Source: an uncultured Gemmatimonadales bacterium
GTDB lineage: Bacteria; Gemmatimonadota; Gemmatimonadetes; Gemmatimonadales; GWC2-71-9
Reading direction: 5' to 3'
DNA: 64,000 bases
NCBI GenBank assembly: GCA_963844035.1
Contig: CAWJMT010000003.1
Location: 32,001 to 96,000, forward strand
Shown: piece by piece, positions 3,338-25,802 of the stretch
Numbering within the stretch: position 1 is the first letter of the stretch
How the letters are laid out: each line of letters opens with the position of its first letter
Translations under genes and position numbers: made by a program
The notes under the pieces: generated by a model
Seen by the model: the letters and a program-made list of their open reading frames with translations, nothing else
Told to the model about the DNA's origin: nothing
The model's database searches: none

Positions 3338-3790
3338 ATGCCGACGAAATCCTCCAAGCCCAGACCCAAGAGCAAGGGCAAGAGCAAGGCCAAGGGGAAG
3401 GGCATGAACAAGAAGCAGCTGGCGCACTTCGAGAAGCGGCTGCTGGAGGAGCGCGCCCGGGTCATGAAGGAGCTCGGGCCATTACGACGAGCGCTTCAAC
3501 GCGACGCTGCAGGCCTCCGACGGCGACCTGTCGTGCTACTCCTTCCACATGGCCGACCAGGGGACCGACGCCATGGAGCGCGAGAAGGCGTTCCTGTTGG
3601 CGTCGAAGGAGGGGCGGTACCTCTGGCACGTGAACCAGGCGCTGCGCCGGCTGTACCGCAATCCCGGCGAAGTTCGGCAAGTGCGAGCACTGCGGCGAGG
3701 ACATCAGCTTCGAGCGGCTCGACGCGCTGCCCCACGCGCGGCTGTGCATCAACTGCAAGGCGAAAGAGGAGAGATGGCAAGCGCCGCTGA
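3338..3790 (+). CDS. DksA/TraR C4-type zinc finger protein with Lys-rich N-terminal tail
   Basis: Coiled-coil tip HMADQGTDAMERE, then FGKCEHC..ISFERLDALPHARLCINCK; frameshifted. Confidence 0.88.
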   Translation: MPTKSSKPRPKSKGKSKAKGKGMNKKQLAHFEKRLLEERARVMKELGPLRRALQRDAAGLRRRPVVLLLPHGRPGDRRHGAREGVPVGVEGGAVPLAREPGAAPAVPQSRRSSASASTAARTSASSGSTRCPTRGCASTARRKRRDGKRR

Positions 3791-4296
3791 GTCGCCGGCT
3801 GTTCTGGGGGACGGCGGCGCGATCGTCGTCGCGGACATCGTCACCAAGCTGCGTCGCCGAGTCGCGTGCTGTCCCGCCGCCTGCCGGTCTCGGTGATCGG
3901 CGATTTCGTGCAGCTGCGCCTCGTGTACAACCCAGGCGCGGCGTTCGGGCTGTGCCTCGGGGCGATACTCGCGCTGGATCTTCTTCGCCCTGGCGATCGT
4001 CGCGCTCGTGGTGCTCGGCATCGATGGTGCGGGCGGCACCGCGGGGCGATCGCGCTGCGCTTGTACGCGCTCGCCGCTGGTCTGTGCCGGCGCCGTCGGC
4101 AACCTGATCGACCGGCTGCGCAGCCCGCGGCGTCGTGGACTTCCTGGACGTCGGCGTCGGCGTCCGTGCGCTGGCCCACGTTCAACGTCGCCGACACGGC
4201 CGTCACGGTGCGGCGCGATCGCCCTCGCGCTGTCGCTCTGGCTCGAAGGTCGAGCCCAGGACCGCGCGACGGAGGCTCGGGCGGCCGACGCCGTGA
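3774..4296 (+). CDS. lspA: Lipoprotein signal peptidase II
   Basis: Motifs DIVTK, YNPGAAFG, GAVGNLIDR, VVDFLD and WPTFNVAD across frames. Confidence 0.92.
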
Positions 4297-5319
4297 ACGA
4301 CGACGGCGGTCACGCTTCTCCGTCGCCGTCGCCGCAGACCGAACGCCTCGACCGCTTCCTCGCCGACCAGCTGTCCGCTCTCCCGCACCGTCGCCGCCCG
4401 CCTCATCGCCGACAGGCGCGTTTCCGCCGATGGGCGCCCGCTGCGCGCGTCCGTGCAGCTGCCGCGCGCCACCGTCGTTCGGTGTCGTTCCCTCCCGACG
4501 GCAGCACCCCGCACGTACGCCCCGGCGCATCGCGATCTCACGTTCGTGTACGAGGACGACGACCTGGCGGTGGTCGACAAGCCGGCCGGACTCGTCGTGC
4601 ATCCGGCGCCGGGGCACTGGGACGACACGCTCGTGAACGCGCTGACGCACGCGCGGCACTGCGCTGTCTCCGGGCGGCGGAGGCCGGACGCCCCGGGATC
4701 GTGCACCGGCTCGACAAGGACACCTCCGGGCTGCTGGTGGTCGCCAAGACCGATGAAGGCGCACCGGCGCCTGGCCCGCGCGATCGAGCAGCGGCGGGTG
4801 GAGCGGCGCTACGCGGCCCTCGCGTGGGGACATTCGGCGAACGACCGGGTGACGATCGACGCGCCGATCACGCGCAGTCCCGCCGACCGCAAGCGGATGG
4901 CGGTGAAGGCAGGCGGGCGCCATGCGGTCACCGTACGCGGAGGTCGTGGCCCGGTACGCCCATGTCGATCTGCTGCGCCTGCGGCTCGAGACCGGCCGCA
5001 CGCACCAGATCCGCGTGCACCTCAGTCCAGTCGGCCACCCGGTGGTGGGCGACCCGGAGTACGCGCTGGGCGGCAGCCGCCGGGTGACGCCGTCGATGCG
5101 CCGGGCGGCCGAGCGCATCGAGGAGCTCGCGCCGCGGCAGGCTGCTGCATGCCGCGGCGCTCACCTTCGAGCATCCGGTGACCGGCGCGCGCCTCGCGCT
5201 GCGGTCGGAATGGCCCGAGGACCTGCTGCCGGCGCTGGCCGAAGCGGCCGACAGATCCCAATTTGCTTGCTCAACGCAACCCCTTGCAGTATCTTGGCTT
5301 CTTCGCTTCGGATGAGTGA
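4293..5319 (+). CDS. rluD: RluA/RluD-family 23S rRNA pseudouridine synthase
   Basis: RLDRFL S4-like start, [54 protein letters not shown]. Confidence 0.9.
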
Positions 5320-5773
5320 CGGCGGACGTGGTCCGGCTGCTCTGTTCCGGTCGGCCCGCTTGCCTGCGCGGTCGCGGCGGAAACGGTGCGGGAGATCCTG
5401 CCGCGCCTCGAAACCACTCGAATTCCGGGTGCCCCGGCCGTGGTCGCCGGGGTGGTGAACGTCCGCGGGAGCTGGTGACGGTGGTGGAGGGATGGCGGGC
5501 GCTTGGCCAGCCGGCGCCGGCCGCAGACACGCCGGCCGGAGAGGCACCGGCTGGAACCACCATGGTGCTGGAGTTCGCGGGCGGCGTAAGATCGCCGGCT
5601 TCACGGTGGACGAAGTGATCGACCTCCTTTCGGTAGGCGGCGAGACGCTGGAACGCCGACAGGCGCTGCCCGGCATCGACCCGGCGCTGGTGCAGGCTGT
5701 GGGCCGCCGGAGCGGGCAGCTCTTCGTGGTCCTCGATACTGACGCCCTGCTGACCCCCTTTTTGCTGCCGTAG
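5312..5773 (+). CDS. cheW: CheW-like protein 1
   Basis: VREIL..., VPG...[25 protein letters not shown] and [11 protein letters not shown] are CheW-type patterns; frameshifted. Confidence 0.75.
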
Positions 5774-5783
5774 GGAGGACGGT

Positions 5784-6148
5784 GTGGGCCATCGAGTGCT
5801 CGTCTGCGACGACGCGATCTTCATGCGGACGATGATCAGCGACATCCTCACCGCAGGCCGGCTACGAGGTCGTCGGGCGAGGCCGAGACCGGCGTCCAGG
5901 CGATCGAGCGCTACAAGGCGCTGCGGCCCGACCTCGTCACGATGGACATCGTGATGCCCGACATGGGCGGCATCGAGGCGGTGCGCGAGATCGTGAAGGA
6001 CGATCCCGACGCCAAGATCCTGATGTGCAGCGCCATGGGCCAGCAGGCGCTGGTGGTCGAGGCGATCCAGGCCGGCGCGAAGGACTTCGTGGTCAAGCCG
6101 TTCCAGCCGTCGCGCGTGCTCGAAGCGGTGCAGCGCGTCCTCGGGTAG
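5784..6148 (+). CDS. cheY: CheY response regulator (Firmicutes/Thermotoga/DifD-like)
   Basis: VLVCDDAIFMR, TMDIVMPDMGGIEAV, MCSAMGQQALVVEAIQAGAKDFVVKPF; SD-like GGGAGG upstream. Confidence 0.93.
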
Positions 6149-6150
6149 GC

Positions 6151-8064
6151 ATGGATGTCCGGCAGTACGCGGACCTCTTCCTCACCGAGAGCCGCGAGCA
6201 TCTCACCGCGTTCAACCAGCTGCTGCTCGAGTGGGAGCGCGACCCGGCGGCCACGGGAGCCGGTGAGCGGCATCTTCCGCGCGGTCCACACCGTGAAGGG
6301 GATGGCGGCGACGATGGGGTACGCGCGCGGTCGCCGACCTGGCGCACCGGGTGGAGAACCTGCTCGACGTGGTGCGGCGCGGGGAGCGGACCGCCGTGAC
6401 CGGCGACTGTTCGAGCTGCTGTTCCGCGCCGCCGACGCGCTCGAAAGCGGTCGACCTCGCGTGGTGGGCCGCGAGGGCGAGCTGGACGTCGCCGCGGCTC
6501 GCTCGCGGAGCTGGAGGCGGCGAGCGGACGCGTCGCTCCGCGCGCCGCGCCGCGGCGCGCCGCGCCGCGGCGCCGTCCCCGCGCCGGCGCCCGTCGCCCC
6601 GGGCGCCGCGGCCGGGGAAGGGCCGCGCTGGTGCAGGTGACGCTGCGTCCCGAGGCGGCGCTCAAGGGCGCGCGCGCGCTGCTGGTGCTGCGCAAGGCGG
6701 CAGACGCTCGGCGCCGTGCACGCGGTCACGCCGGCGCCCGGCGGCGTTCGAGTCCGAGGGCTTCGACGGACGGCTGGCCTTCCGGCTCGACTCGACGGCG
6801 CCGGCGGAGGCGATCGTGGCGGCGCTGCCAGGGCGCGGGCGACGTGGAGCGGGTGGAGGTCGCGGCGGAGGATCGGAGGAGCGCCGGCGCCGAGGGCGCC
6901 GCGAAGCGCACGCGCACGCGGCACATCCGCGTGGACCTGCGCCGGCTCGACGAGCTGATGAACCTGATCGGCGAGCTGGTCATCGCGCGCGGCCGCCTGA
7001 ACGAGCTCGCGCGCGGTTCGCGCGAGCCGGACCTCGACGACGTGCGCGATCCAGATCGCGCGTCTCGCGATCGAGCTGCAGAGCGAGATCATGGCGGCGC
7101 GGATGATGCCGGTGTGGCAGGTGTTCGACCGCTTCCCGCGGATGGTGCGCGACCTCGCGCGGCAGATGGGCAAGCAGGTCGCGTTCCGGGTCGAGGGGAA
7201 GGAGATCGAGCTGGACCGCGCGATCCTCGACGAGATCGCCGATCCGCTGGTGCACCTGCTGCGCAACGCGGTGGACCACGGCATCGAGCCGCCGGAGGAG
7301 CGGCCGCAGGCCGGCAAGCCGCCGGTGGGCGAGATCGTGCTCGCGGCGGTGCGCGAGCGCTCGAGCGTCGCGATCACGGTCTCGCGACGACGGGCGCGGG
7401 ATCGACCGCGCGCAAGGTACTCGAGCGGGCGCAGGCGGGATGGGCCTCGTGGAGCCGCACGCCGACATCCTGACGCGACGATCAGCTGCTGCGGATCCTG
7501 GCGCGCCCGGGCTTCACCACGGCCGAAGCGGTGACCGACGTGTCGGGACGGGGCGTGGGCATCGACGTGGTCAACGACGCGGCTGCGGGCGCTCGGCGGC
7601 TCGCTCGAGGTCCGGTCCGAGGCGGGCAAGGGCACCACGCTTCACGCTGCGGCTGCCGGTGACGCTGGCGATCGTGCGGGCGCTGCTGGCGCGCGTGGGC
7701 GACGAGCGCTACGCGCTGCCGCTGACGCACGTGGCGGAGACGGTGGAGTTCGGCGACGAGCCGACGACGACGATCGCAGGGCCGGGAGGCGATGCTGCTG
7801 CGCGACCGGGTGGTGCCGCTGGTGCGGCTGCGCGAGCTGCTCGGCGTGCGGCGGCGCCGCACCGCCGGCCGCGCCAGCCGGTGATCGTGCTGGAGATCGG
7901 CGAGCGCCGCGCCGGGCGTGGTGGTGGACGGCATGCTCGGGCAGCAGGAGATCGTGGTGAAGAGCTTCGATGCGCCGCGCGGGACGCTGCCGGTGTTCAG
8001 CGGGGCGACGATCCTCGGCGACGGCGATCCCGGCGTTGATTCTCGACGCCGGCGGCCTGTCTAG
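6151..8064 (+). CDS. cheA: CheA histidine kinase (P1-P2-P3-P4-P5)
   Basis: P1 FRAVHTVKGM; P2-like LKGARALLVL; IRVDLRRLDELMNLIGEL; HLLRNAVDHGIE; PGFTTAEAVTDVSGRGVGIDVV; LPVTLAI; QEIVVK. Confidence 0.95.
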
Positions 8065-8075
8065 GGGAGGGGGCG

Positions 8076-8707
<632 letters not shown>

Positions 8708-8711
<4 letters not shown>

Positions 8712-11427
8712 CGGCGCCGGCGCCCTCGGAGCGCGACCTCGCCGTCCTGCGGTCGTTCGCCCGCCGGATCGATCCGTCCGACGCCGGGCGCCCACAACAA
8801 TCTCGGCGTGCTCTACTATCCGCAAGGGCTCTCACCAGGAGGCGATCGCCGAGCTTCACGCGCGCGCTCGAGCTCGACCCGCAAGATGGCGGTCGCGCAG
8901 CGCAACCTCGAGATCGTCTACCGCACACCGGGGTTCTACGACCGGCGCATCGCCGAGCTGCGGGAGCGGCTGCGCCAGCGCGCCGGACGACCGCGAGGCG
9001 CGCTGGGAGCTGGCGCGCGCCTACGCGTTCGTCGGGCAGTACGAGGAGGCGGTCGCCGAGTTCGAGGCGCTGCTCGCCGAGCGGCCCGGCGACATCGGGG
9101 CGATGCTCCAGCTCGGGCCTCGCCGAGCAGCGCCGCGGGCGCCTCGAGGCGGCCGCCGAGTGGTTCGTCCGCGCGCGCGAGCTGGATCCCTCGAGTCGTC
9201 GGTGCTCGCGTTCCACCACGGCGAGGTGCTACTACAACCGGGGACTGAACGACGACGCGCTGGCCGCGCTGGAGCGCGCGGTCGCGCTGAGCCCCGACAA
9301 CGCCGACGCCCACTACCTGCTGGCCTTCGTGCTCGGCGACCTGGGCCGCCACGCCGAGGCGCGGGCCGCGTCCAAGCGCGCCGTCCAGCTCAACCCGGCG
9401 CTCGGCGCGCGCCCAGACCAACCTGTCGCTCGAGCGCACACCGCCGACGCACGGCGCGCGAGCAGCGCGCGCCGCGAGGCTCCCGCAGCCGGCGATCGCC
9501 GAGGGCAACGCGCTCGCGCACTACAACCTCGGCCCGCGCCTTCCGCCAGAAGGGCTACTACGCCGAGGCGCTGCGCGAGTACCGGCTCGCCCTGGAGCGC
9601 GGCGAGGACCGCCGCGCTCGCGCTCGCGAGGCGATGGCCGAGGTGCACCTGCTGCGGCGCGACCTCCCGGCGGCGCTGCGAGCTGTACGAGGAGCTGGTC
9701 GGCGAGTCGCCGGACTCCGCCAAGCTGTGGAACGAGCGCGGCGTCTGCCTGCACCAGGGCGGGCCGCGCCGACGAGGCGCTCGCGTCGTACCGGCGGGCG
9801 GTCGCGGCCGACCCGAGTACGCGCCTCGCCCGCAACAACCTCGGCGTGGCTGCTCGTGCGCAGGCGCCCGACGGAGCAGGCGGTGGAGGCGTTCCGCGAC
9901 GGCCCTGCAGGCGGGCCGACGCTGATCACGCCGCGCGCCTCAACCTCGCCCTGCTGCTCGCCCAGCTCGACCGCACCAGCTGTCGCTCGAGGCGTACCGC
10001 CAGGTGCTCGAGATCGAGCCCGCACTCCGCCGCCGCGTGGAACGGCATCGGGCTCGTGCTCGTCGAGCTGCAAGCGCTACGCCGACGCGAGCAACGCCTT
10101 CGCGCGCGCGGTCGAGGCCGACCCCGAGCACGCGCGGCGCGCACTACAACCTGAGCTTCACGCTGTCGAATCTCGGCGACTTCGAGGGCGCGCTGCGCGA
10201 GATGCAAGCGGGCGCTCGAGCTCGATCCCGTACTACGTCCCGCAGAAGTTCCTGCTCGCGATCGAGCTGCAGTTCGAGGACCCGTCGCTCAGCGTCGCTC
10301 CCGAGATCTCGGCGGACGTCCGGCCGAGACCTGGGGGAGTCGTTCGCCTTCGATCCGCGCCTGCTCGACGACATCTTCAAGGAGCTTGCCCCGGCCGGCC
10401 GCCGCGGCACGCGACACGGCGCAGCGGGCCGAGGACCCTTTCGGGCTGGCGCGCGACTACCTTTCCAAGGGGCTCTTCGAGCAGGCCGCCGCGGAGGCGA
10501 CCCGCGCGGTGCAACGCGGCGCCGACCGGGTGGACGCCGCGGTGCTGCTGGGCGACGTCTTCGCGCGGCGCGGCCTGCTACGGCGAGGCGCTCGAGCGCT
10601 ACCGGGAGGCGCGGGCGCTCGACCCGACCACGTCCGCGACGCGCTGCGCGGGGAGGTGCGCGCGCTCCTGGCGCTCGACCGTGCTCGCCGAGGCGCGGCC
10701 GCTGGCGGAGCAGCTGCTCGGGCTCACACCCGACGACGTGGAGGCCGCGGTGCTCGCGGCGAAGGCGCGCGGCCGGCGGCGACCCCGCGGGCGCGCTCGA
10801 CGCGCTGCGCCAGGCGCAGACGCGCGCGCCGGCGCGGGCCGACGTCCGCAAGCTGCTGGGCGACGTGGCGCTCAGGGTCGGCGACGCCGAGCGGCGCCTT
10901 CGCCGCCTACCGGGCGGCGCTCGAGCTCGACCCGGGATACGTCCAGGTCTGGGTCGAGGTCGGGCGGCTGCACGAGCTCAAGGAGGAATCGGGGCCGGCG
11001 GAGCAGGCGTACCGCGCGGCACTCGAGCACCTCCCGAGCTTCTACGAGGCCGCGCTGGCGCTCGCCGTCTGCTGCGGCGGGTGGGGCGCGGCGCCGAGGC
11101 GCGTGGACGCGCCTGGCGACGATGCTGGAGCAGGATCCCTACGATTTCGAGGCGCTGCTGCTGCTGGCGCCGGGTGCTGCTCGACGACAAGCGCGGATGC
11201 GGCGGCGCTCGAAGCGTCCGGCGGGTCGTGCAGTTCGAGCCCGAGCACGTCGAGGCGCGGTTCCAGCTCGGCGTCGCGCTCGCGCGTGAGCGGCGCTACC
11301 GCGACGCCGTGGCGGCGTGGGAGCGGGTGACGCGCCTCGACCCGTCCGGACCGTTCGCGCAGCGCGCGCGGATCCACGCGCGCACGGCGCTCGACCTGGT
11401 GCACATCTTCGCCCCGGCGCGGCCTGA
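8708..11427 (+). CDS. Large (~900 aa) multi-TPR protein
   Basis: Many TPR-type repeats (AHNNLGVLYY, ALERAVALSPDNADAHYLL, KLWNERGVCL, AWNGIGLVL, ARFQLGVALA) over shifting frames. Confidence 0.85.
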
Positions 11428-11438
11428 CCGATGGCGAC

Positions 11439-12603
11439 ATGGCGATCGAAGGCCCGCTTCGCGAGCTCGGCCTCCACGACGTCTTCCAGCTGCTCGACCT
11501 GAGCCGGAAGACCGGCGTGCTGCGCGTCACGTCGGACCTGCGGCACAACGACGGCACCGTGTACTTCGACGGCGGGCACGATCGTGTTCGCCGAGATCCG
11601 CAGCAACCCCCACCCGCTCGGGGCGCTGCTGCTGCGGACCGGCAAGATCGCCGAGGCCGACCTCGAGCGGGCGCGCGACATGCAGACGCGCCAGGGAGAC
11701 CCGCGCCGGCTGGGCCAGATCCTGGTCGAGATGGGCGCGATCACGGCGCGCGAGCTGGAGCGCCAGGTGCGAGTTCCAGATCGAGGAGAGTCGTCTTCGA
11801 GCTGATGTCGCTGGCGCGAGGGCTTCTTCTCGTTCGCCGAGGAAGCGGTCGACCGGACTGCCCGCGGACGTGCCGTGCGGATTCCCACGGAGGCCATCCT
11901 GATGGAGGGGGCGCGCCGCATCGACGAGTGGTCGCGCATCGAGAAGCGCATCTCCGCACCTCGGCGTCGTGCCGCTCCTCGCGCCGCCGCGGGACGGGGA
12001 CGCGGGGCAAGCTCGACCTGCTGCCGGCGGAGTGGGAGCGTGCTCGCGCAGGTGGACGGAACGCGGGACGTGCGTGCCATCGCGCCGTCGCTGGGCCGCT
12101 CGGAGTTCGACGTGGCGAAGACGCTGTTCGGCCTGGAGAGCGCGGGCGTGATCGTGCTGGTGGATCCGGGAGCGGCCAAAGGCGATCGCGTGACGACGGC
12201 CGCCGAGCTCGCCGAGCTCGTGGCCCGCGCCGAAGACGCGCTCGCCGCCAAGGACCTGGGCCGCGCGCGCGCGGAAGCGGAGCAGGCCGCCGCACTGTTT
12301 CCGCACGATGCCGCGGTCCATCTGCTGCTCGGCCGCATCCAGCTCGCCGACGGCCGCCCGGGTGACGCGGCGGACGAGCTGCGGCGCGCCCTCCACCTCG
12401 ACTCGTTCCTGGTCGCGGCGCACCGCATGCTCGGGTACGCGCTCGTGGCGTCGGGCCGGTTCGCGGAGGCGGTGGAGCAGTGGGAACAGTGGGAGCGGCT
12501 CGCGTCGCGCTCGGACGCCGAGACCGCGCAGCTCGAGCAGGTGCGTCGCGCCAAGACGGCCGCGCAAACGCTCGTCGGCGCCGGGGTGCCGGGCCATGAC
12601 TGA
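11439..12603 (+). CDS. DUF4388 (PatA_N-like) protein with MshEN-like motifs, winged-helix-like segment and C-terminal TPRs
   Basis: MAIEGPLRELGLHDVFQLLDLSRKTGVL; RLGQILVEMGAIT; LMEGARRIDEW; VDGTRDV..SEFDVAKTLFGL. Confidence 0.88.
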
Positions 12604-13432
12604 AGACATCAAGTCGCTCTCCGCCCAGCTCGCCCAGGATCCCATGAGCCTCGTCTTCCTGCGCCTCGCCGAGCTGCTGCGGCAGAAGGGGCAGCTCGAC
12701 GCCGCGCACCGGGTGGCGCTGAGCGGCTGGAGCGCCACCCGCATGTGGCCGACGCGCACGACCTGTACGCGCGCATCCTCGCCGACAAGGGGGACTACGA
12801 GCGCGCATTCGACGAGTGGGACATGGCGCTGCGGATCGCTCCCGGCCACACCGGCGCGCTCAAGGGGCTTTCCTTCCTGTACTTCAAGGTGGGCGACGTG
12901 GATCAGGCGGTGGCGCACCTCGAGTCGGCGCGGCGCCATAGCCCCGACGACCCGGGGATCGAGCAGGCTCTGGCCGTCGTGCGGGGCGGCCGGCCGGTCA
13001 AACCCGCGGCGGCTCCCGCTGCGGGACGTCAGGAGCCGGCGGCGACCGCCGCCGCTGCGATGCCGCTGGAAGACGCTCGCGTCTTCGCCGGCCTCGAAGG
13101 CGCGCAGGAGGGGCTGCTACTGCTCGATGCCGCGGGGCGAGTGCTGGGCGGCGCACTCCGCAATCCCGCCGGCGACGACGTCACCGATGCGGTCGCCGCC
13201 TATCTCGCGGGCGTGTCGCGGGAAGCGGCGCGCACCGCCAAGCTGCTCGGCCTTGGGACCTGGACCGGGCTCGCGACCGAAGGGGGTCAGGGCCACGTCC
13301 ATCTTGCGCCAGCCCACGTCCGACGCCCTGCTGCTGGTGCTGCGCGACCGCGCGATGCCGATCGGACGCCTCGCCATCGTGGCGCAGCGGGCCGCGCACG
13401 CGGCACGTCGCTGGCTGGAGCGGCAGGGATGA
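12596..13432 (+). CDS. TPR + Roadblock/LC7 domain fusion protein
   Basis: N-terminal DPMSLVFLRLAELLRQKGQLD plus TPRs; C-terminal LLLLDAAGRVL..AVAAYLAG..LLGLG..LLLVL..IGRL roadblock pattern. Confidence 0.78.
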   Translation: MTEDIKSLSAQLAQDPMSLVFLRLAELLRQKGQLDAAHRVALSGWSATRMWPTRTTCTRASSPTRGTTSAHSTSGTWRCGSLPATPARSRGFPSCTSRWATWIRRWRTSSRRGAIAPTTRGSSRLWPSCGAAGRSNPRRLPLRDVRSRRRPPPLRCRWKTLASSPASKARRRGCYCSMPRGECWAAHSAIPPATTSPMRSPPISRACRGKRRAPPSCSALGPGPGSRPKGVRATSILRQPTSDALLLVLRDRAMPIGRLAIVAQRAAHAARRWLERQG

Positions 13433-13779
13433 CGGCCGCCCCGTTCGAGCGCGCCCTCGACCGGATCTCGCGGGTCCGCGGTGTCCGCGGCTCGATGTTC
13501 GTCTCCGCCGACGACGGCCTGGTGGTGGCGGAGCTCCTGATGGAGGGCGTCAACGGCGGCGGTCGCCGCGCTCGCCGCCTGCCTCGCCACCGGCTGGGGC
13601 GGGCGATGGAAGCGGCGGGGATCGGCCGCAGCGTGTTCTGGCACCTCCAGGGGACCGACGGCACGCTGCTCGTCGTCCCGGCGGCGCCGGGATCCTCGTG
13701 GTCGCGGTCACCGAACCGCGACGTGAACGTCGGGCTGTGCGGCTCGAGATGCTGCGCGCCGCGGAGGCGGTGGCGATGA
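13429..13779 (+). CDS. Roadblock/LC7 protein (MglC-like)
   Basis: VRGVRGSMFVSADDGLVV...AVAALAA...LVVAV..DVNVGL.RLEM. Confidence 0.82.
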   Translation: MTAAPFERALDRISRVRGVRGSMFVSADDGLVVAELLMEGVNGGGRRARRLPRHRLGRAMEAAGIGRSVFWHLQGTDGTLLVVPAAPGSSWSRSPNRDVNVGLCGSRCCAPRRRWR

Positions 13780-14251
13780 CGACCACGGTCGTCGAGCCCT
13801 GGACGCACGAGCCGCTGCAGCGGTTCGTGGGCGCAGGCGAGCGCGCGGCTGGTGGTGCGTCATGACGCCGGCGGGGCAGGTGCTGGCCCAGCACGGCTTC
13901 GCGCGGGCGGTGGACCTGATGTCGGCGTGCGGCGCTCGGCGCGGCGATCATGGCGTCGTCGGCGGCGCTCGCGCGAGCTGCTGGGCGAGCCGCCGTTCGG
14001 CGCCCTGTTCCACGCGGGCGAGCGCCACGGCATCCATCTCGGCGCGGTGCCCACGACCCCGCGGGACCGGCTGGTCGCGCTGACGGTGTTCGGCCGGGAG
14101 ACGTCGATCGGGCTGGTGCAGCTCTTCTTCGAGCGAGTTCGCCGCGGCGCTCAAGGCCGCGGCGCCCGCGGAGCGGCGTCGCGGCCCGGTCCTCGCCGCG
14201 GACTTCGAGGCGGAGCTGAGCCGCAGTCTCGACTCGCTCTTCGGCAGGTGA
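13776..14251 (+). CDS. mglB: MglB-like Roadblock GAP with acidic C-terminal helix
   Basis: AGQVLAQHG..ALGAAIMASS..LLGEPPFGALFHAGE..VFGRETSIGLV..DFEAELSRSLDSLFGR; lies immediately upstream of mglA. Confidence 0.83.
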
Positions 14252-14255
14252 GCCC

Positions 14256-14873
14256 ATGTCGCTCGTGAACTTCACGACGCGCGAGATCACCTGCAAGATC
14301 GTCTACTACGGGCCGGGGCGGTCGGGGAAGACGACCAACCTGCAGTACATCTACGGCCAGGTCCCGGACGACGCGCCGCGGGCGCATGGTGTCGCTCGCC
14401 ACCCAGACCGACCGCACGCTGTTCTTCGACTTCCTGCCGCTCGATCTCGGCGTCGATCTCGGGGTTCACGACCAAGTTCCAGCTGTACACGGTGCCCGGG
14501 CCAGGTCTACTACAACGCCACCCGCAAGCTGGTGCTGCAGGGCGCCGACGGCGTGGTGTTCGTGGCCGACAGCCAGGCGCGCCAGCTCGACGAGAACATC
14601 GAGAGCCTGCAGAACCTCCAGCGAGAACCTGCTCGAGCACGGGCGTCGACATCCGCACGCTGCCGATGGTGCTGCAGTACAACAAGCAGGACCTGCCCGC
14701 GCGACCTCATCCTCGCGCCCGGCGGAGCTCGACGACGCGCTCAACTTCCGCGCGCTGCCCGAGCTTCCCGGCCGACGCCCTGCACGGGCGCGGGCGTGTT
14801 CGAGACGCTGAAGGCGATCAGCGCCGAGGTGCTGCGCAAGCTGAGCCAGCGCGCGCCGGGGCGGCACGGCTGA
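14256..14873 (+). CDS. mglA: MglA small Ras-like GTPase (Myxococcus/Thermus group 1 type)
   Basis: [74 protein letters not shown]. Confidence 0.95.
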
Positions 14874-14874
14874 C

Positions 14875-16842
14875 GTGGACCTGAACCCGCGCTTCCAGTT
14901 CGAGACCTTCGTCGTCGGCGCGAGCAACCGGCTCGCCGCGACGGCGGCGCGCGCGTCGCCGAGTCGCCGGGCGACGGCCTACAACCCGCTGTTCATCTAC
15001 GGCGGGTCGGGGCTGGGCAAGACGCACCTGCTGCAGGCCATCGGCCACGCGGCGCTCGAGCAGCAGCCCGGCGCTCCGCGTCGAGTACGTGACGCTCGAG
15101 GAGTTCGTCGAGCAGTTCCACGCCGCGGTCGCCGCGGGGCAGGGCGACGCCTTCCGCCGCAGCGTCGCAGGAGTCGGACGTGCTCCTCCTCGACGACGTG
15201 CAGTTCCTCGACGAACGCAACGCGAGATGCAGGCGGAGCTGCTCCGGCTCACCGAGGCGCTGCAGGCGGCCGGCCGGCAGATCGTGCTGACCAGCGACCG
15301 CCCGCCGGCCGAGATCGCGCGACCTCGACGAGCGGCTGATCTCGCGGCTCTCCGGCGGCCTCGCTGGTGGACATCGCGGCGCCCGACTACGAGACGCGCG
15401 TCGCCATCCTGCGGCGCAAGGCGGAGGAGCGCGGCGTCGACGTTCCCGCCGGGCGTGCTCGAGGCGGTGGCGGGCGGCGCGATCCAGAACGTGCGCGAGC
15501 TGATGGGCGCGCTGAACCGGCTCGATCGCCTTCCAGGCGGTGAGCGAGGCGCCGCTCACGCCGAGGGCGCGCCGCGCTGCTCGGCCTGTCGCTGCCCGCG
15601 AGCACGGCGGCCGCGCGCGGCGGCCGCCGCGCGCCGCGCCAGGCGGACGAGTTCGCCGCGTTCCTGCAGGACGTGACCGCCACCGTGGCGCAGAGCGGTC
15701 GAAGCGTGGCGCGCGCGCGTCGGCGAGGCGGTCGTGCGCTGGCAGGGCGAGGGCTACCGCACGCGCCGGCTGGAGGCGCTCCTCGAGCGACGACACCCCC
15801 GGCGCGGTGGACGACGTGATCGCGGCGTTCGCAGGCGGACGTCGAGCGGCTGCGCGCGCTCGGGCCGAGGTCGCCGCGCTCGACCCGCCAGGCCGCGGGG
15901 CACGCCATGTTCCGCGACCCGGACCGCCTGGCGGAGGCGCGAGGCCGCGGCGGCCACCGTGCAGGCGGGCGTCGGCGCCGCCCCCCGGCCCCTCGGAGGC
16001 GTTTACGCTTCGCGGCGTTCATCGTGGGGGCGGCGAACCAGGTGGCCGTGCGCGCGGCGCACGCGGTGCTCGACGCAGCCCGGCAGCGCTACAACCCGCT
16101 CGTCATCGACCGGGCCGAGCGGCGTCGGCAAGACGCACCTGCTTGCACGCGATCGGCAACGAGCTCGCCGAAGGCGCGGCCGGCGCCGTCGTCGCCTGCT
16201 TCTCCACCCAGGCGTTCATCGACGAGCTCATCGCCGCCATCGACGGCGACCGGGTCGATTGGTGGCGCGCGCGCTACCGGCGGCGCCGACCGCGCTGCTG
16301 CTCGACGACGTGCAGCTGCTCGCCGGGAAGGAGCGGACGCAGGAGGAGCTGTTCAACCTGTTCAACCTGCTGCACGACGGGGAGCGCCAGCTGGTGTTCA
16401 CGCCGCCGGCCCATCCCAGCACGCTCGTGGGCGTGGAGCAGCGCCTCGGCTCGCGGCTCGAGGGCGGCCTCGTGGTGGAGCTGGCGGCGCCGGACCGCGA
16501 CGTGCGGCGCGCGGTGCTCGACCGCCTGCTCGCGCAGCACGAGCGTCGAGTCCCGACGCCGCGCTGCGCGACTACCTCGCCGACCGCCCGGTGGATTCGG
16601 TCCGCAGCCGTGCGGCGTGGTGCAGCGCGTGATGAACGCCGCGGCGGACGCCGGATCGAGCCGCTCAGCGTCGCCGCTCGCGCGCGAAGTCCTGGAGGGA
16701 CGGCCCGCCGCGTCCGGGCGCGCAACGGGCGGCCTCCGCACCAGCGGTCCGATCGTGTCGAGCCGGGCGGCTCCGCAGCCGCGAGAAGGTCGTGTGGGAC
16801 TGGCCCGACGTCGCCGACCGGCTGATCGAGGAGCTGCGCTGA
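14875..16842 (+). CDS. Tandem DnaA-like AAA+ protein (two domain-III modules; no domain I or IV)
   Basis: Module 1: [59 protein letters not shown]. Module 2: [61 protein letters not shown]. Ends [15 protein letters not shown]. Confidence 0.85.
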
Positions 16843-18482
16843 TGGCCATCAAGGGCAGCCTCAAGGAGGCGCAGCCTCCCCGACGTGCTCCAGCTGCTGG
16901 CGATGGGCCAGAAGACCGGCTGCCTGTCGGTCGCCGACCGCAGCAACTTCGGCTACATCTACTTCGAGAAGGGCCGCATCACCTACGCGTCGATCGTCAA
17001 CCGGCGCGACCGGCTCGGCGACATCCTGGTCAAGAACGGCCGCATCACCCAGGAGCAGCTCGAGGCGGCGGTGCGACCGCCAGGCGCACGACCGCGACAA
17101 GCGCTCGGCGAGATCCTGCTGGTCGAGCATGGGTGCATCACGCGGCCGGACCTCGAGCGCTACATGCGCGTGCAGATCGAGGAGGCCGTCTACTACCTGT
17201 TCACCTGGACGCAGCGGCACGTTCAACTTCGAGGCGGACGTCCGGCCCGAGCGCGCAGGACTTCCTCGTGTCGCATCAGCCCCGAGTCGCTGCTGCTCGA
17301 GGGGGCGCGGCGGGTGGACGAGTGGAGCCTCATCGAGAAGAAGATCCCGACGTTCGACCTGATCTTCGTCGTGGAGCGCGACCGGCTGGCGATCGTCCGG
17401 GCGTCACGCTCAACGCCGGAGCAGGAGCGCATCCTGCCGCTGCTCGACGGCACGCGCGACGTGAACGCAGGTCATCGAGGACTCGGGGCTGCTCGAGTTC
17501 GACGTCGGCAAGGCGCTGTACGGCCTGATCACCGCCGGCTTCGCGCACCGGCTCGGGCCGCACCGCGTCGACCGGTGGACGCGCCTGTCGACGGACGCCC
17601 GCGTCGAGGAGCACCGCAATCTCGGGCGTCGCCTTCTACAAGACGGCGATGTTCGACGAGGCCGCGCGCGAGTTCCGCCGGGTGGTGGAGCTGCGGCCCG
17701 GCGACAGCGAGCGCGCACTTCTTCCTCGGGCTCGTGGCGCTGCGCCAGGCCCGCTGGCGCGAGGCGGTGGACGCGCTGCGGCACGCGGCGGAGCAGGGCG
17801 GCAGCCGGCCCGCGGTGCTGCACAACCTGGCCGTGGCCTGGAGCAGATGGGCCGGCTCGCCGAGGCGGAGGCGGCGTACGCCGAGGCGGCCGCCGCGCGC
17901 CACGACCGACGCGCGCATCTCCCTCGGCTGGGGCATCGTCGCGCTCAAGCAGGGCGACTTCGCGAGCGCCGCCGGACGCGCTCGACCGCGCCAAGGAGCT
18001 GTTCGGCGACGATCCCGCCCGCCGACGTGGTACTGGGCGCGCGACCCTCGCCGCGGCGTCGGCGCGGCGAGTTCGAGCTGGCGGACGCGCTCGCCGACGA
18101 AGGGGTCGGAGCGCGTATCCCTCGCACGCGGTCGCTGCGCAACAACCTCGCCGTGCTGAGCGAGCTCGGGGGCGACCTCGCGCGGGCGGAGGAGCTGATG
18201 CGCGGCGCCCGCAGGAGGACCCGTCGCTGCCGCAGCTCTCGAAGAACCTCGGCGACCTCGCCTACCGGGCGGCGCGCTACGACGAGGCGCAGGAGGCGTA
18301 CGACCGGGCGATCAAGCTCGCCCCGCGCCTCGGCGACGACGTGTACTTCAAGCTCGGCAACATCGCCTTCAAGCGCAGGCGACCGCGAGCGGCGGCGCAG
18401 CTGCTGGCGCGAGGCGCTCGCGCTCAATCCGAAGCACGAGCTCGCCAAGGCCAACCTCGACACCTTGAGCGCGTTGTCGTGA
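16842..18482 (+). CDS. DUF4388 + MshEN-like + winged-helix-like + TPR protein (paralog of 11439)
   Basis: [73 protein letters not shown]; several TPRs. Confidence 0.88.
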
Positions 18483-19309
18483 CGAGCGACCACCGGATGA
18501 GCCGCGCTGCAGGCGCTCACCGAGAAGATCTCCCGGGCGCGCGGCGTCGCTGCGGAGCTACAAGGACAAGTGCCTGCGGCGCCGCCTCGCGGTGCGGATG
18601 CGGGCGCGCGGCGTGCACACCTTCGACGAGTACGCGACGGTGCTCGACGCGCGACGCCGAGGAGTACGACCGGCTGCTCGACAGCGCTCACGATCAACGT
18701 CACCAAGTTCTTCCGCAACCCCGAGACGTTCGCGGTGCTGCGCGCCCGTGTGGTGCCGGCGCTGTGGCGCGCGCGGCACGGACGCATGCGCGTCTGGTCG
18801 GCCGGCTGCGCGTCGGGCGAGGAGCCCTACACCCTCGCGGTCGCGCTGGCGGAGACGGCGCGCGGCCTCCACGAGATGACTGCTGGCGCGCGTCCGCATC
18901 GACGCGACCGACCTCGATCGCGGCGAGCCTGGAGCGCACGCGCGCGGGCCAGTTCCCCGCAGAGCACCTTCAGCGAGATGCCGGCGGAGCTCGCGCGAGC
19001 GGTACTTCACCGCCGGGCCGCCGTACCGCGCCGGCCGCTGCCGGCGCTGGAGCGGATCGTGCGCGTGCGCCGCCACGACCTCACGCGCGAGCCGCCCCCC
19101 GAACCGCCCTACGACCTGATCGTCTGCCGCAACGTGGTGATCTACTTCGACCGGCCGATGCAGGAGCGGCTGTTCCAGACGCTTCGTCGAGGCGCTCGTG
19201 CCCGGCGGCATCCTGCTGCTCGGCAAGGTCGAGACGCTGCGTCGGGCCCGCGCGCGAGCGCCTCAAGCTCGAGGACCCGCGCGAGCGGATCTACCGCCGG
19301 CCCGCATGA
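18479..19309 (+). CDS. cheR: CheR methyltransferase
   Basis: LTINVTKFFRN, RVWSAGCASGEEPYTLA, HDL, DLIVCRNVVIYFD, GGILLLGKVE. Confidence 0.94.
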   Translation: MTSDHRMSRAAGAHREDLPGARRRCGATRTSACGAASRCGCGRAACTPSTSTRRCSTRDAEEYDRLLDSAHDQRHQVLPQPRDVRGAARPCGAGAVARAARTHARLVGRLRVGRGALHPRGRAGGDGARPPRDDCWRASASTRPTSIAASLERTRAGQFPAEHLQRDAGGARASGTSPPGRRTAPAAAGAGADRARAPPRPHARAAPRTALRPDRLPQRGDLLRPADAGAAVPDASSRRSCPAASCCSARSRRCVGPARERLKLEDPRERIYRRPA

Positions 19310-19808
19310 CCACGCCGGCCGCCAAGGAAACGATCGTGCGCGTGGCGGACTGGGCCGCGAAGCGCGGCGACGAGGCGCTCGTGACCCTCGGCCTGGGCTC
19401 GTGCGTCGCCATCGTGCTGCACGACCCGCAGACGTGGGTCGGCGGCCTGGCGCACATTCTGCTGCCCTCCCGCAGCCTCGCCCGCGACACGCACCAACCC
19501 GGCGAAGTTCCCGGAGACCGCGCGTGCCGTTCCTGGTCGAGCAGCTGCGAGGCGCTGGGCGCCGATCCGCGCCGCATCGTGGCCAAGCTCGCGGGCGGCG
19601 CGAGCATGTTCGCGCAGCTGATGACGCCCGGGTCGATGCAGATGGGCGAGCGCAATCTGGCCGCCACCCGCAGCGCGCTGCGCGGCGGCGCGCGATCCCG
19701 CTCGCGGGCGAAGCGGTCGGGGGCGAGGCCGGCCGCTCGGTGCGCTTCTTCGTCGCCGACGGCCGGGTCGAGGTCCGCTCCGTGGGAGCCGGTGTCGTCT
19801 GCATCTGA
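19306..19808 (+). CDS. cheD: CheD receptor glutamine deamidase
   Basis: TLGLGSCVAIVLHD..GGLAHILLP (catalytic Cys/His), AKLAGGASMF, MGERN, VGGEAGRSV. Confidence 0.93.
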
Positions 19809-20892
19809 CGCGCGCCCCACCGTCCTGGTCGTGGACGACAGCGCGCTGATGCGCCGCGTGCTGTCGGACATCTGGGCGGTCGGCGGCCGCCGGGGAGTTC
19901 CGCGTGGTGGCGACGGCGCGCAACGGCCTCGACGCGCTGCGCAAGGTGCACGCAGCTACGAGCCCGACCTCGTGACGATGGACATCGAGATGCCGGAGCT
20001 CGACGGCCTCGGCGCCATCGGCTACATCATGCGCGAGGCGCCGCGGCCGATCGTCGTGGTGAGCGCGCACGGGCGGGCCCGGAACCGCCGAGGCGATCCG
20101 CGCCCTCGAGCTCGGCGCGGTGGACCTGGTCGCCAAGCCGGAGGAGGCCGACGCGCACGGCGCTGGAGCGCTCGGGCCGCGGCTCCTCGGCGCGGTGCGG
20201 CGCGCGCTCGCGGCCGACGGTCCCGCGTGCCGATGCTGGCGCGCCCGCCGGCCCGCCGTGCGGCACGCGCTCGAGACGGGCCTGCGGCCGCGCGCCCGCG
20301 TCGTGGCCCGATCGCCGCGTCGACCGGCGGGCCCCGCGCGCTCGCGGAGGTGGTGCCCGCGCATGCCCCGCGGGCCGGCACGCGCGGTGCTCGTCGTGCA
20401 GCACATGCCGCCCGGGTTCACGCGCAGCCTCGCCGAGCGTCTCGACCGCATGAGCCCGCTGCGCGTCGTCGAGGCGGAGCACGGCGCGCCGGTGGTCGAG
20501 GACACAGCGTACGTCGCGCCGGGCGACTATCACATGCGGGTGACGGCCGCGCACGACGGTCCGCAGATCGCGCTCGACCAGGGCCCGCCCATCTGGGGCG
20601 TGCGTCCCGCCGCCGACCCGCTCTTCCGCTCCGTGGCCGCAGCTGTTCGGCGCCCGCGGCCTGGGCGTCGTGCTCACCGGGATGGGCCGCGACGGCGCCG
20701 AGGGGCTGCGCGCGATTCACGACGCGGGCGGCACGCGGCCTCGCGCAGGACCGCGAAACCTCGATCATCTACGGGATGCCGCACGGCGGCGGTGCAGGCC
20801 GGCGGGCGCGGACGCGGTGCTGCCCCTCGGACAGGTCGCCGATCGCATTGCGTCCGAGCTGCTGCGCCGCGACCCGGTGGCCCGCGCGATGA
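19792..20892 (+). CDS. cheB: CheB methylesterase with receiver domain
   Basis: [59 protein letters not shown]. Confidence 0.94.
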
Positions 20893-21306
20893 GCCGCGGG
20901 CTACCTGCTGGTGCAGGTCGGACGGCGCGCGCTACGGCCTCGCCGCTCGAGCGCGTGCTGCAGGTGGACGACCTGGGCGAGGTGCTGGAGGTGCCGCGCG
21001 TGCTGCCCGCGATGCGCGGGGTCACGCCGCTGCAACGGCACGTCTGGTGCCGCTGATCCACCTGGGCGCGCTGCTCGGCAACCGCCGCCGCCGGCCCGGC
21101 GCGGGACGGCCACCGTGCTCGTGGACCTGGGCGGCCGGGCGCGCTGGTCGCCCTCGAGGTGGACGACGCCGACGAGGTCGTGCGCGAGGCGGTGCTGCCC
21201 GCGCCGCCCGGCGAGTCGCCTGCCGTGGGCGTCCGGGGTGGCGCGGCGCGAGGGGACCCTCGTGCCGATCCTGGACTGGGACGTTCTGGAGGAGCGCATC
21301 AAGTGA
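20889..21306 (+). CDS. cheW: CheW-like protein 2
   Basis: [47 protein letters not shown]. Confidence 0.78.
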
Positions 21307-21781
21307 CCACCAGGGGACGACGTCCAGGTCGTCGTCTTCCGGCTGGCCGGCCAGGAGTTCGCCTTCAACATCTTCCAGGTGGAGCGGATCCTCCGCTACG
21401 AGGCGGCGGCACCGCTCCCCAAGGCACCGCGAGTTCCTCGAGGGGGTGCTCCAGTACAGGGCGCGCGTCGTCCCGCTCATCGACCTGCGCAAGCGCCTCA
21501 GCGTGGCGGCGCCGATCGAGGAGGAGACGCGCACGGTGATCCTCGAGTCGGAGGGCGCGAAGATCGGGGTGGTGGTGGACGCGGTCACCGAGGTGCTCCA
21601 GGTCGCGGCGTCCGAGATCACGCCGCCGTCCAAGGTCGTCCACGGACTGGCGGCGGAGTACATCAGCGGGCTCGTGGTGAAGGACGGGCGCACGATCATC
21701 GTGCTCCAGACCGGCCAGCTCCTGAACGCCAAGGAGAACATGGCGCTCGAGGCAGTGCTCCCCAAGGCCAAGGCATCATGA
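21303..21781 (+). CDS. cheW: CheW protein 3
   Basis: [55 protein letters not shown]. Confidence 0.9.
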
Positions 21782-22643
21782 GCGAGTCCCCGATCGGGGC
21801 GCTGCGCGGCGGAGTACGACGCGATCGCCCGCCGGCTCGACAGCGCGACCGCCGCGGCCGAGCGCGACGTCGTCAAGCGCGACATCATCGCGCTACTTCA
21901 AGCAGGTGGACACGCTCATCACCGAGCTGGCGGAGCTGAAGGAGGACATCCGCAAGCTCGTCGAGCGCTACAAGCAGATCGCGGCGTCGACGGCGGAGGC
22001 CTCGGCGCCGGAGTTCACGAGCGCCCGGCCGGCGATTCACGCCGACCACATCGGCGCCTCGACCTTCATCGAGAAGGGCTGGAGCCTCATCTCGCTCGGC
22101 GATCACGCCGGCGCGGTGCAGGCGCTCCAGAAGGCGCTGAAGCTGTCGCCCGGCGAGACGCAGGCGGAGTCGCTGCTCGGCTGGGCGCAGATGCTGCACG
22201 AGGACTACGACGACGCGCTCCAGACCTTCCAGCGCGTGCTGCTGAAAGAGCCCGCCAATTCGCTCGCGCGCATCAACGTCGGGTACATCTGCCTCAAGAA
22301 GCGGATCTTCGGCGAGGCGATCGAGCACCTCTCGAAGGCGATCCGGCTCGACAACGACAAGAAGGCGACCCTGTACGCGCATTTCTACCTCGGGCTGGTG
22401 TACCTGCAGCGCGAGATGTACGAGGACGCTCAGACGTTTTTCGAGAAGACGCTGAAGCTCGGTCCGAACCTGATCGAGGCGTACTACGAGCTGGGGCGCG
22501 CGCGCTGGTTCGGGGGCGACCGCGAGGGCGCGCAGCGCACGTGGGAGGACGGCGCCAAGGCGAACAAATTCAATCCCTGGGGCAAGAAGTGTCAGGAGAC
22601 GCTGGACGCCATTCATAAGGGACAGGAGCCCCCGCGCATCTAG
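21778..22643 (+). CDS. Coiled-coil + TPR protein
   Basis: N-terminal heptads ([23 protein letters not shown]) followed by about 5 TPRs; last gene of the cluster. Confidence 0.82.
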
Positions 22644-22657
22644 TACTAGCGCTTCTG

Positions 22658-23511
22658 TTGCTGCTGCAGGTGCCCCCTCCCCAGGCGGTGACCGTCGGTC
22701 GCGTCACGGCGGTTGCCTGGCCGGGTCACGAGCCGCTCGCCGCGAGCCTGGCCACCGCCGCCGACCGCACGCCGCCGTTCCCCGGCATCGGCCCGCTGCC
22801 CGACCGCCCGATCCGGCTGATTCTCGCCCCGACGCGCGCCGTGTTCGATTCGCTCACCCACGGCCGCCTCCCCAAGTGGACCGAAGGAGCCGCGTTTCCG
22901 GATGCGGGCACGATCGTGCTGCTCACCGGTCGGCCCGCCCGACCGCCTGTCCGGCCCTCTGCGCCACGAGCTGGCGCATCTGGCGCTGCGCTGGCGGTTG
23001 AACCATCCGCCGCCGTTGTGGCTCGACGAAGGGTACGCCGCGTTCGCGGCCGGCGAATGGGGCCGGCTCGAAGCGCTGCGGCTCAACTGGCAGATCGCGC
23101 GCGGCGCGCGCATGAGCCTCGCCGACGTGGATCGCGCGCTCCGCTCCGACGCGGCCGACGCGCAGACGGCGTACGCACTCGCGACGACCGCGGTGCTGCT
23201 GCTCAACCGCTGGGGCGGCCCGCAGGGCCTGGCGCCGTTGATCGACCGGCTCGCCGAGCAGCCGACGTTCGACGCCGCGCTGCGCGCCACGTATCACGTC
23301 ACCGAGGGGGACTTCGAGACACGGTGGAGCGCGCGAGGTGGCCTCGCGGTACGGCTGGCTCTCGTGGGCGGGGGCGGTGGGGCTGTTCTGGGCGCTCCTG
23401 GCCCTGTTGCTCGTGTCGCTCGTGGTGATGCGGCGACGCCGCGATCGCGCCCGCAAGGCGCTGCTCGACGAGGGGTGGACGGTGCCGGAGGACGAGGGCC
23501 CAAGTGCTTGA
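22658..23511 (+). CDS. Peptidase MA/gluzincin-like membrane-anchored protein
   Basis: LRHELAHLAL (HExxH) with downstream WLDEGYA; C-terminal TM followed by RRRR; frameshifted. Confidence 0.72.
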
Positions 23512-23824: not shown

Positions 23825-23859
23825 CTGGGACAAACCGGGTGCAACGGAGGATTGCCGGC

Positions 23860-25783: not shown

Positions 25784-25802
25784 CCTGAACCCGCGTCGCG
25801 GG

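Follow-up and report, generated by a model that had tools for sequence, protein, structure and literature searches.

We analysed a 64,000-nucleotide stretch of DNA from an uncultured Gemmatimonadales bacterium (positions 32,001 to 96,000 of contig CAWJMT010000003.1, assembly GCA_963844035.1; hereafter, the window), in which an array of 18 genes brings together the two halves of a chemosensory (che) gene set, an MglA-type GTPase, three Roadblock proteins, two DUF4388 (PATAN) proteins, tetratricopeptide repeat (TPR) proteins and an ATPase derived from DnaA. The source assembly (G000) holds this array twice. Alignment of window positions 1-22154 to G000:C35:300756-322763 showed 84.7% identity; the 18 window genes carry 292 frameshifting indels, with substitutions concentrated at third codon positions, and the C35 copy has whole reading frames. 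Thus, the window copy is an error-rich version from a diverged strain, co-assembled with the intact one. Protein work was done on the intact copy (contig C35, locus L027), except that the terminal TPR gene was taken from the window, since C35 cuts that gene off. An artefact or misassembly was ruled out by the intact copy and by the gene order kept in close relatives. The duplication is larger than the array: G000:C3:1-54154 duplicates C35:271142-322763, such that ~54 kb are present twice at ~85% identity, and further contig pairs in G000 overlap at 82-99%, a strain mixture that inflates gene copy numbers there.

Pfam and NCBIfam supported the label of every gene and confirmed the original prediction of 18 genes in this order, with the che halves flanking a GTPase core. 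The tight packing by overlaps or small gaps that had been described was also seen on the intact copy, where 10 of the 16 junctions computed overlap and the widest gap is 11 nucleotides (nt). The features, by window coordinates, are as follows.

5312..5773, + strand: first cheW (PF01584 on the intact copy, mapped to the window)
5784..6148, + strand: cheY, a single receiver (D9, D10, D54 and K104 kept; closest solved protein the Thermotoga-type CheY 1tmy)
6151..8064, + strand: cheA, with Hpt (HTVKG), P2, dimer, HATPase and CheW parts (38 frameshifting indels in the window copy)
8076..8703, + strand: cheC phosphatase with two ExxN sites (Pfam, NCBIfam, motif check)
8708..11427, + strand: TPR protein of 897 amino acids (aa) (Pfam on the intact copy)
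11439..12603, + strand: DUF4388/PATAN protein a, with an MshEN-like insert and TPR (PF14332; NF053729 at 41.8 bits, cut-off 38; one relaxed MshEN motif)
12596..13432, + strand: TPR and Roadblock/LC7 protein (Pfam on the intact copy)
13429..13779, + strand: small Roadblock/LC7 protein (Pfam on the intact copy)
13776..14252, + strand: divergent MglB-like Roadblock (E 3.6e-7 against solved MglB)
14256..14873, + strand: MglA paralogue (G1, R53, Q82 and NKQD kept)
14875..16842, + strand: DnaA-derived ATPase, consisting of AAA+ domain 1, EFxxFxxD motif, helical linker, AAA+ domain 2 and C-terminal peptide (Pfam, motifs, model)
15646..15715 (end approximate), + strand: EFxxFxxD motif, the first half of the remnant in reduced genomes (by comparison with those genomes)
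16780..16842, + strand: C-terminal EKxxxxWP...R.IEE.. peptide, the second half of the remnant (its stop overlaps the next start, TGATG)
16842..18482, + strand: DUF4388/PATAN protein b, the proposed hub, with an MshEN-like insert and a TPR superhelix (Pfam, NCBIfam)
18479..19309, + strand: cheR (Pfam, motif check)
19306..19808, + strand: cheD (Pfam, motif check)
19792..20892, + strand: cheB, receiver and methylesterase (above the NCBIfam cut-off)
20888..21306, + strand: second cheW (Pfam, mapped to the window)
21303..21781, + strand: third cheW (Pfam, mapped to the window)
21781..22643, + strand: terminal TPR protein, strongly conserved (Pfam, alignment of relatives)

Synteny in related genomes had been named as a check on the array, and the order was indeed kept, both in 80 loci of close relatives and in 44 chosen genomes. 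In the former, all 15 reachable genes were present and in place wherever the locus was long enough (47/47 to 74/74), cheW1, cheY and cheA lying outside the flank reached. The 44 genomes with operon parts, which were hand-picked for spread and apparent losses rather than at random, keep the order of whichever genes remain; the three flagged by the order check were accounted for by a CheW label only, with the genes in order (G191), and by an unrelated downstream response regulator (G170 and G130). The hub gene, DUF4388 b, was found in 147 of 201 sampled Gemmatimonadota genomes (these tallies include one unpublished genome, G168, on which alone no claim rests), namely in 96/97, 37/40, 3/3, 4/4, 1/1 and 3/3 members of six families, 2/24 of a seventh and 0/28 of the other five, plus G000, and the interleaved gene order is kept across seven families. 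Scanning of genome contigs for the operon returned close relatives only; the few matches filed under other taxa seem to come from mis-binned contigs, with CheC 86-87% identical in two of the three. The operon is real, class-wide, modular and vertically inherited in Gemmatimonadota.

The modularity is documented by natural deletions. All che genes are lost in G123 and G161, which retain the middle block; in G061 the downstream che genes are gone and the contig ends upstream, and in G084 and G057 the che genes are decaying, the MglA block being intact in all three. The middle (MglA) block is lost and the che genes are kept in G086, G088 and G195; three Roadblocks and cheR are lost in G082, G117, G149 and G206; and G170 and G130 are reduced to ATPase and DUF4388 b. 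DUF4388 b alone occurs in all variants for which the retrieved stretch extends that far, and it is always adjoined by the ATPase or, in 8 genomes, by a remnant thereof. The separate losses of the two blocks could mean that the operon is a set of co-transcribed but loosely coupled modules: the che cassette and the MglA/PATAN cassette would have one promoter in common, and perhaps the hub, yet CheY would not signal to MglA; the housekeeping gene rluA, which also abuts the array, fits this as well. Nonetheless, conservation of the interleaved order, and the fact that both partial forms retain the same hub gene along with the ATPase or its remnant, make such loose coupling improbable.

The MshE-related model NF053729 of NCBIfam is matched above its cut-off by protein a as well as by hub b. 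The MshEN receptor of cyclic di-GMP (c-di-GMP) is made of two tandem 24-residue motifs (PMC5013675; published sources are cited by PMC number or DOI, each for excerpts of its text). A relaxed form of this motif occurs in 15 of 27 copies of protein a, in tandem in 0/27, and binding of c-di-GMP by the DUF4388 proteins is possible from these motifs. The MshEN-like insert is deleted from hub b in seven genomes, which constitute one clade (100%); since they do, and since G128 keeps the insert next to only the remnant of the ATPase, the insert loss was one event, which weakened an idea of repeated joint loss of insert and ATPase. Solved-structure and fold searches with the hub gave only generic TPR proteins among the matches listed, and the ESM Atlas gave only generic PatA_N clusters. 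The SgmX model NF052243 gave a score of 33.8 bits, far under its cut-off of 1800, and the match is thus no SgmX orthologue. It is to be noted that PATAN, which is the same as DUF4388, binds PilB1/PilC in Synechocystis (10.1101/2021.06.11.447907), and that MglA recruits the TPR protein SgmX, by which PilB is brought to the pole (PMC11580455). G061, G107, G020 and G104 have a third DUF4388 gene outside the operon, with 55-62% identity to hub b.

The ATPase was modelled with a mean pLDDT of 88.6 as two folds of the DnaA domain III type with a helical bundle between them (8bv3, TM 0.94 by target length, for both AAA+ domains). Domain 1 keeps Walker A and Walker B (33/33 each), the arginine finger (26/33) and sensor II (30/33), and is 39-50% identical to the same genome's own DnaA, while domain 2 is more eroded, with the sensor I Asp kept in 8/29. 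With NCBIfam, the protein exceeds the DnaA cut-off and comes near that of Hda, and it is of DnaA origin. Its fold, its retained motifs and its resemblance to DnaA would also suit a link to the cell cycle, whereby the ATPase co-assembles with the true DnaA or inhibits it as Hda does, and replication initiation or asymmetric division is thereby coupled to polarity and chemosensing. A clamp-binding-like motif, QL[SDPA]L[FPL], a pattern that we take to be the one binding the sliding clamp and of which variants could be missed, was found in 0/33 ATPases. Of the residues by which DnaA contacts single-stranded origin DNA (PMC10721633), Asn187, Ile190 and Lys222 are each retained by no more than 2 of the 33 domain-1 copies, as against all five true DnaA (one with Val190). 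Moreover, both AAA+ domains are deleted in 8 genomes in which the flanking motifs are retained. With these points against it, the cell-cycle link appears quite improbable, and nothing found points to the asymmetric division that had been suggested originally. Arg202 and Glu228 are often kept in domain 1 (21/33 and 23/33, respectively), so that some contact of the ATPase with DNA is possible. Pfam detected no DnaA domain I or IV family in the ATPase (no PF08299), and a true dnaA with domain IV is located elsewhere in 5/5 genomes checked. As far as its motifs tell, the ATPase is unlikely to be an initiator or Hda, and the annotation as chromosomal replication initiator that the protein often carries is unsupported by the evidence here.

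The ATPase was found to shrink in steps: G065, G120 and G098 no longer have domain 2, the short ATPase of G065 being 392 aa long, and in G215 the linker is gone as well. In 8/8 genomes with the hub but no AAA+ domain, the same slot is occupied by a remnant open reading frame (ORF) of 60-73 codons, in which the EFxxFxxD motif is fused in frame to the C-terminal tryptophan peptide; the view that the ATPase gene is wholly absent from reduced genomes was, therefore, wrong. The tandem DnaA-like protein foreseen by the original prediction is indeed present, but its AAA+ domains are dispensable, and two short motifs are what is retained. The remnant frame has coding-type base use, and 7/7 differences between the G088 and G086 remnants are synonymous; those of G025 and G029 differ by many replacements (22), such that constraint falls on the motifs and not on the spacer. 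In a tree of RluA plus DUF4388 b, seven of the 8 remnant genomes were placed in one clade (100%) with G128 outside, and the remnant thus arose at least twice. The low confidence of the EFxxFxxD stretch in the single-chain model might befit a docking motif, and from the retained motifs we infer that the remnant, or the C-terminus of the full ATPase, binds the hub. No ATPase-hub fusion occurred among the longer proteins searched, which is weak evidence; P0025 was not counted as such a fusion, as it seems to result from a junction where a short sequence is shared.

The helical linker had no usable match in the ESM Atlas. A profile of linker plus C-terminal peptide retrieved 380 representatives at E <=0.001, the best 150 of which include proteins of ~850-1580 aa with 7-11 linker-like repeats (P0203, P0222 and P0132 among them). 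Six large repeat proteins were scanned, of which one contains a DnaA domain and zinc ribbons, and another DUF835, an archaeal domain. Since taxa were not given and repeats inflate scores, these proteins are a lead only.

The operon MglA aligns to 5ymx/6h17 at E 2e-72 and possesses the Group 1 features, i.e., the G1 loop, the intrinsic Arg53, Gln82 and NKxD, which are conserved in 33 of 34 aligned rows. The exception, G121 (genus g27; L069:9165-10553), lacks the G1, R53 and Q82 features and likely has a pseudo-GTPase version, as read from these residues; its TPR and DUF4388 a genes are shortened. A canonical mglB-mglA pair lies elsewhere on C35 (L052:9157-10329), after dnaX-ybaB-recR and before a pgsA-like gene, and its MglB matches solved MglB at E 4e-32, compared to 3.6e-7 for the operon protein, which is also under the NCBIfam cut-off. 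Because of this canonical pair after recR, the operon MglA is a paralogue and its pair non-canonical; an mglB-mglA pair is thus present in the array as first described, but it is not the canonical polarity pair. A Cache-HAMP-GGDEF cyclase is found ~5.5 kb from the canonical pair. MglA matches were obtained in G000 and all 30 relatives, with two matches in nearly all. In Gemmatimonas aurantiaca, a 'PATAN>MglA>-PATAN>' neighbourhood (GAU_1409) and an MglB>MglA pair (GAU_1115) have been tabulated (PMC4316618, supplement file 3); the excerpted main text of that paper places some MglA near PATAN genes, with chemotaxis, DUF4388 and TPR unmentioned in those excerpts.

The catalytic residues of CheA, CheY, CheB, CheC, CheD and CheR are intact, as checked on the intact copy against motifs that we presume to be diagnostic, and the solved structure nearest to CheY is of the Thermotoga type. 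Pfam found no receptor (methyl-accepting chemotaxis protein, MCP) family in the 18 operon proteins, and six orphan receptors lie outside the array in G000. Across genomes, receptors above the cut-off number 0 in all five genomes that are losing or without che genes, versus 2-5 in each of five che-bearing genomes. As the array is without a receptor, and receptors located elsewhere are lost together with the che genes, the operon is fed from outside and is not the self-contained module that had been proposed, a description equally at odds with the loss of the che and GTPase halves each alone. G016 and G064 have a second, separate cluster, cheY-cheD-cheA-receptor-cheW-cheR-cheB-cheY-cheC (L182:1511-9146, L183), in genomes without FliG.

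The che genes bear on another explanation, namely a Dif-like control of adhesion or matrix, in which the system senses a surface or the state of the pilus and, instead of steering the pilus motor, uses c-di-GMP-binding PATAN proteins to regulate exopolysaccharide or biofilm. Eight loci were fetched from Myxococcota, the phylum of a metagenome-assembled genome (MAG) titled Myxococcales, and in 6 of them cheW-cheY-cheA-cheC follows a receptor, with CheY 56-65% identical to that of the operon; these loci fit the Dif-like clusters of PMC2577667 and PMC4671073. The primary specificity residues of DifD, F13, M14, M17, D20 and I21 (PMC4671073), are identical here, and the match of both DUF4388 proteins to NF053729 would agree with the same explanation. 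However, those five residues are shared by Thermotoga-type CheY, and are thus not specific to Dif. In an unrooted tree, moreover, the 28 operon CheA form one group (support 99/96), apart from 6 Myxococcota CheA and 7 other Gemmatimonadota CheA, including flagella-linked ones. The operon has no receptor; the eight Myxococcota loci examined contain no mglA, DUF4388 or DnaA-like gene; and MglA, to our knowledge, is not part of Dif. Control of the Dif kind is accordingly unlikely, though it retains some chance.

As for the output, FliG was found in 42 of the 147 hub genomes, and 105/147 are without it, including G000 (84% complete); the output is mostly not flagellar. In most genomes sampled from the class, the array is the principal pathway of chemosensing, and for the most part it works without flagella. 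A role in ordinary flagellar chemotaxis, in which the additional genes would place the motor or the arrays at a pole, would be favored by the Thermotoga-like CheY and by the operon CheA being the sole CheA found in 4 of 5 flagellated genomes checked. Nevertheless, some flagellated genomes have a separate cheA-cheW-receptor-cheB-cheR cluster. The N-terminal LSQ-type segment of FliM, which we take to be the CheY site, is absent in two single-CheA genomes and kept in two multi-CheA genomes, and is broken in the fifth. Together with the prevalence of genomes without FliG, this leaves flagellar chemotaxis as a highly improbable account. In one single-contig genome with fliG (L177; G141:C1:2008212-2011550), fliM is seemingly truncated on the 5' side, in a reading frame other than that of the preceding gene.

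The type IV pilus proteins PilM and PilT are nearly universal in hub genomes, being found in 144/147 and 146/147, respectively. At least three PilT-family copies were found in 130/147 hub genomes, versus 1/54 others. Among 22 genomes examined for individual PilT lineages, one PilT/PilU clade (support 1.0) was present in 8/8 with a full or nearly full operon, in 2/2 of family f7 with ATPase plus hub, in 0/7 heavily reduced ones and in 1/5 without the hub. In G000, an orphan PilT/PilU paralogue of this operon-tracking clade lies at C35:41031-42044, with no pilus genes beside it. Myxococcus-type gliding was looked for through GltG, which was above the cut-off in 0/5 genomes.

Taken together, we consider it somewhat better than an even chance (roughly 55%) that hub b collects the chemosensory, MglA and DnaA-derived ATPase inputs and directs them to the type IV pilus motor, setting the place and timing of pili. 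The orphan receptors would drive CheA, with CheR, CheB, CheD and CheC tuning the signal, and phosphorylated CheY would act on the hub or on the TPR scaffolds. The three Roadblock proteins would position MglA-GTP, and its readers would be the PATAN and TPR proteins, in the manner of SgmX in Myxococcus. Docking of the ATPase on the hub would occur through two predicted motifs, EFxxFxxD and the C-terminal peptide, and the AAA+ domains would add an optional ATP-dependent oligomer or scaffold rather than start replication. The MshEN-like inserts may bring control by c-di-GMP, and the output would be pilus assembly or retraction, possibly via the one orphan PilT/PilU paralogue.

Several observations count against this hub-to-pilus model. 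PilM and PilT are common without the hub (47/54 and 49/54 genomes, respectively), and because of this the presence of pili is compatible with the model but non-diagnostic. No pilus gene lies inside the operon. The operon-tracking PilT/PilU paralogue is present in G099, which has no hub, and a PilT clade taken as control becomes sparser as well (5/8 full, 1/7 reduced, 2/5 without hub); the co-loss of PilT/PilU is confounded by genome streamlining and kinship. The link to type IV pili is therefore indirect, being drawn from analogy and from the co-loss of one PilT paralogue, and the pilus control put forward in the original prediction likewise rests on analogy and co-occurrence. Since each is lost alone in some lineages, the che and MglA blocks are not mutually required. 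The CheY homologue of Myxococcus Dif is only a phosphate sink (PMC4671073), for which reason the CheY here may not be the output either. The c-di-GMP motif of hub b is weak, a relaxed MshEN motif being found in 21/33 copies, in tandem in 7/33, and not at all in G000. Lastly, the end of the C-terminal peptide doubles as the GAGGAG ribosome site of the hub gene, which partly explains its conservation, although the site does not explain the tryptophan and the upstream motif.

A bolder version of the model can be offered tentatively, and we regard it as rather doubtful. In it, the operon would encode a signalling machine of a new category. The ATPase core of DnaA would have been recruited as a scaffold that is optional and switched by ATP, and a two-motif adaptor of 60 residues would tether it to a PATAN-TPR hub that senses c-di-GMP. 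In this hub, the phosphorylation of CheY would be joined directly with a dedicated Ras-like GTPase so as to switch one particular retraction motor of the pilus, and the linker would be reused beyond the phylum.

The limits of the array are probably wider than 5312..22643, because rluA overlaps the start of cheW and a HEXXH-motif gene is downstream in many relatives. Upstream, window positions 1-5320 read from translations as ileS, a DksA/TraR-like gene, lspA and rluA, running into cheW, and in reduced genomes rluA stays immediately upstream of whichever operon gene comes first. Downstream, the HEXXH gene (window 22658-23428) has no Pfam match and starts 14 nt past the last stop of the operon; it is retained even in relatives reduced to two or three operon genes, and may belong to the array. 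It is followed by tRNA-Val (23750-23825) and tRNA-Asp (25709-25785), and then by genes whose translations read as a mraW/ftsI/murE division cluster.

Gemmatimonadota are common soil bacteria, and we know of almost no cell biology on them. Most genomes sampled from one Gemmatimonadota class keep the array, which likely informs the cell about the place and timing of type IV pilus use. Even in Myxococcus, the link from chemosensory kinase to MglA is only partly known and its genes are scattered; here the candidates are gathered in one array. The natural deletions point to a minimal pair of hub protein and 60-residue peptide, both of which are easily expressed and tested. The system would clearly exemplify use of the ATPase core of DnaA outside replication, and reuse of the linker, if true, would reach beyond Gemmatimonadota, to giant proteins with 7-11 tandem repeats, one of them with a DnaA domain.

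No description of the system was found in the literature searched, in which few subscription journals are covered, in keeping with the original statement that no characterised system has this composition; one supplement tabulates part of it. This is the GAU_1409 entry, 'PATAN>MglA>-PATAN>', an arrangement like that of the reduced type without Roadblocks, which is only tabulated, the che genes and the ATPase being unnamed in the two rows on Gemmatimonas aurantiaca (PMC4316618 supplement). To DnaA domain III and Hda, the ATPase is alike in fold and ATPase motifs, but it differs in having no domain I or IV family, a tandem or single AAA+, a helical linker without library match, eroded origin-binding residues and no clamp motif found, and in being reducible to a 60-73-residue peptide. 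The cyanobacterial PatA-type (PATAN/DUF4388) regulators of Tax systems share the presence of PF14332 in a chemosensory array, and PATAN is known to bind PilB1 and PilC (10.1101/2021.06.11.447907); here, however, PATAN is fused to TPRs and not to a receiver, carries an MshEN-like insert, and is present in two copies that flank the GTPase.

The Dif clusters of Myxococcus and the Dif-like clusters of Geobacter (receptor, CheW, CheY, CheA, CheC, with or without CheR and CheD) resemble the operon in the cheW-cheY-cheA-cheC order, a close CheY, a CheC phosphatase and non-flagellar use, the exact dif gene order being one that we assume. Gene identities are those of PMC4671073. In contrast to Dif, whose cluster encodes a receptor with a small periplasmic domain, the array has no receptor, a separate CheA group in the unrooted tree, a CheB and two more CheW, as well as an inserted eight-gene GTPase/ATPase/PATAN block that is absent from the eight Myxococcota loci examined. 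By the features tested, the operon is no member of the Dif family, of the DnaA/Hda families or of the Frz-MglA-SgmX circuit of Myxococcus, although by analogy it would work most like the last. In that circuit (Frz - MglA/MglB/MglC - SgmX of Myxococcus xanthus), mglA is not near its partners, according to the excerpts of PMC4316618, whereas all are in one array here. Furthermore, the MglA here is a paralogue, CheA is without a receiver domain, CheC and CheD are present, a DnaA-derived ATPase has been added, and the gliding gene GltG was not above the cut-off in the five genomes. What the two have in common is a Group 1-type MglA (R53, Q82), several Roadblocks, large TPR proteins, chemosensory input, and pili in the same genomes.

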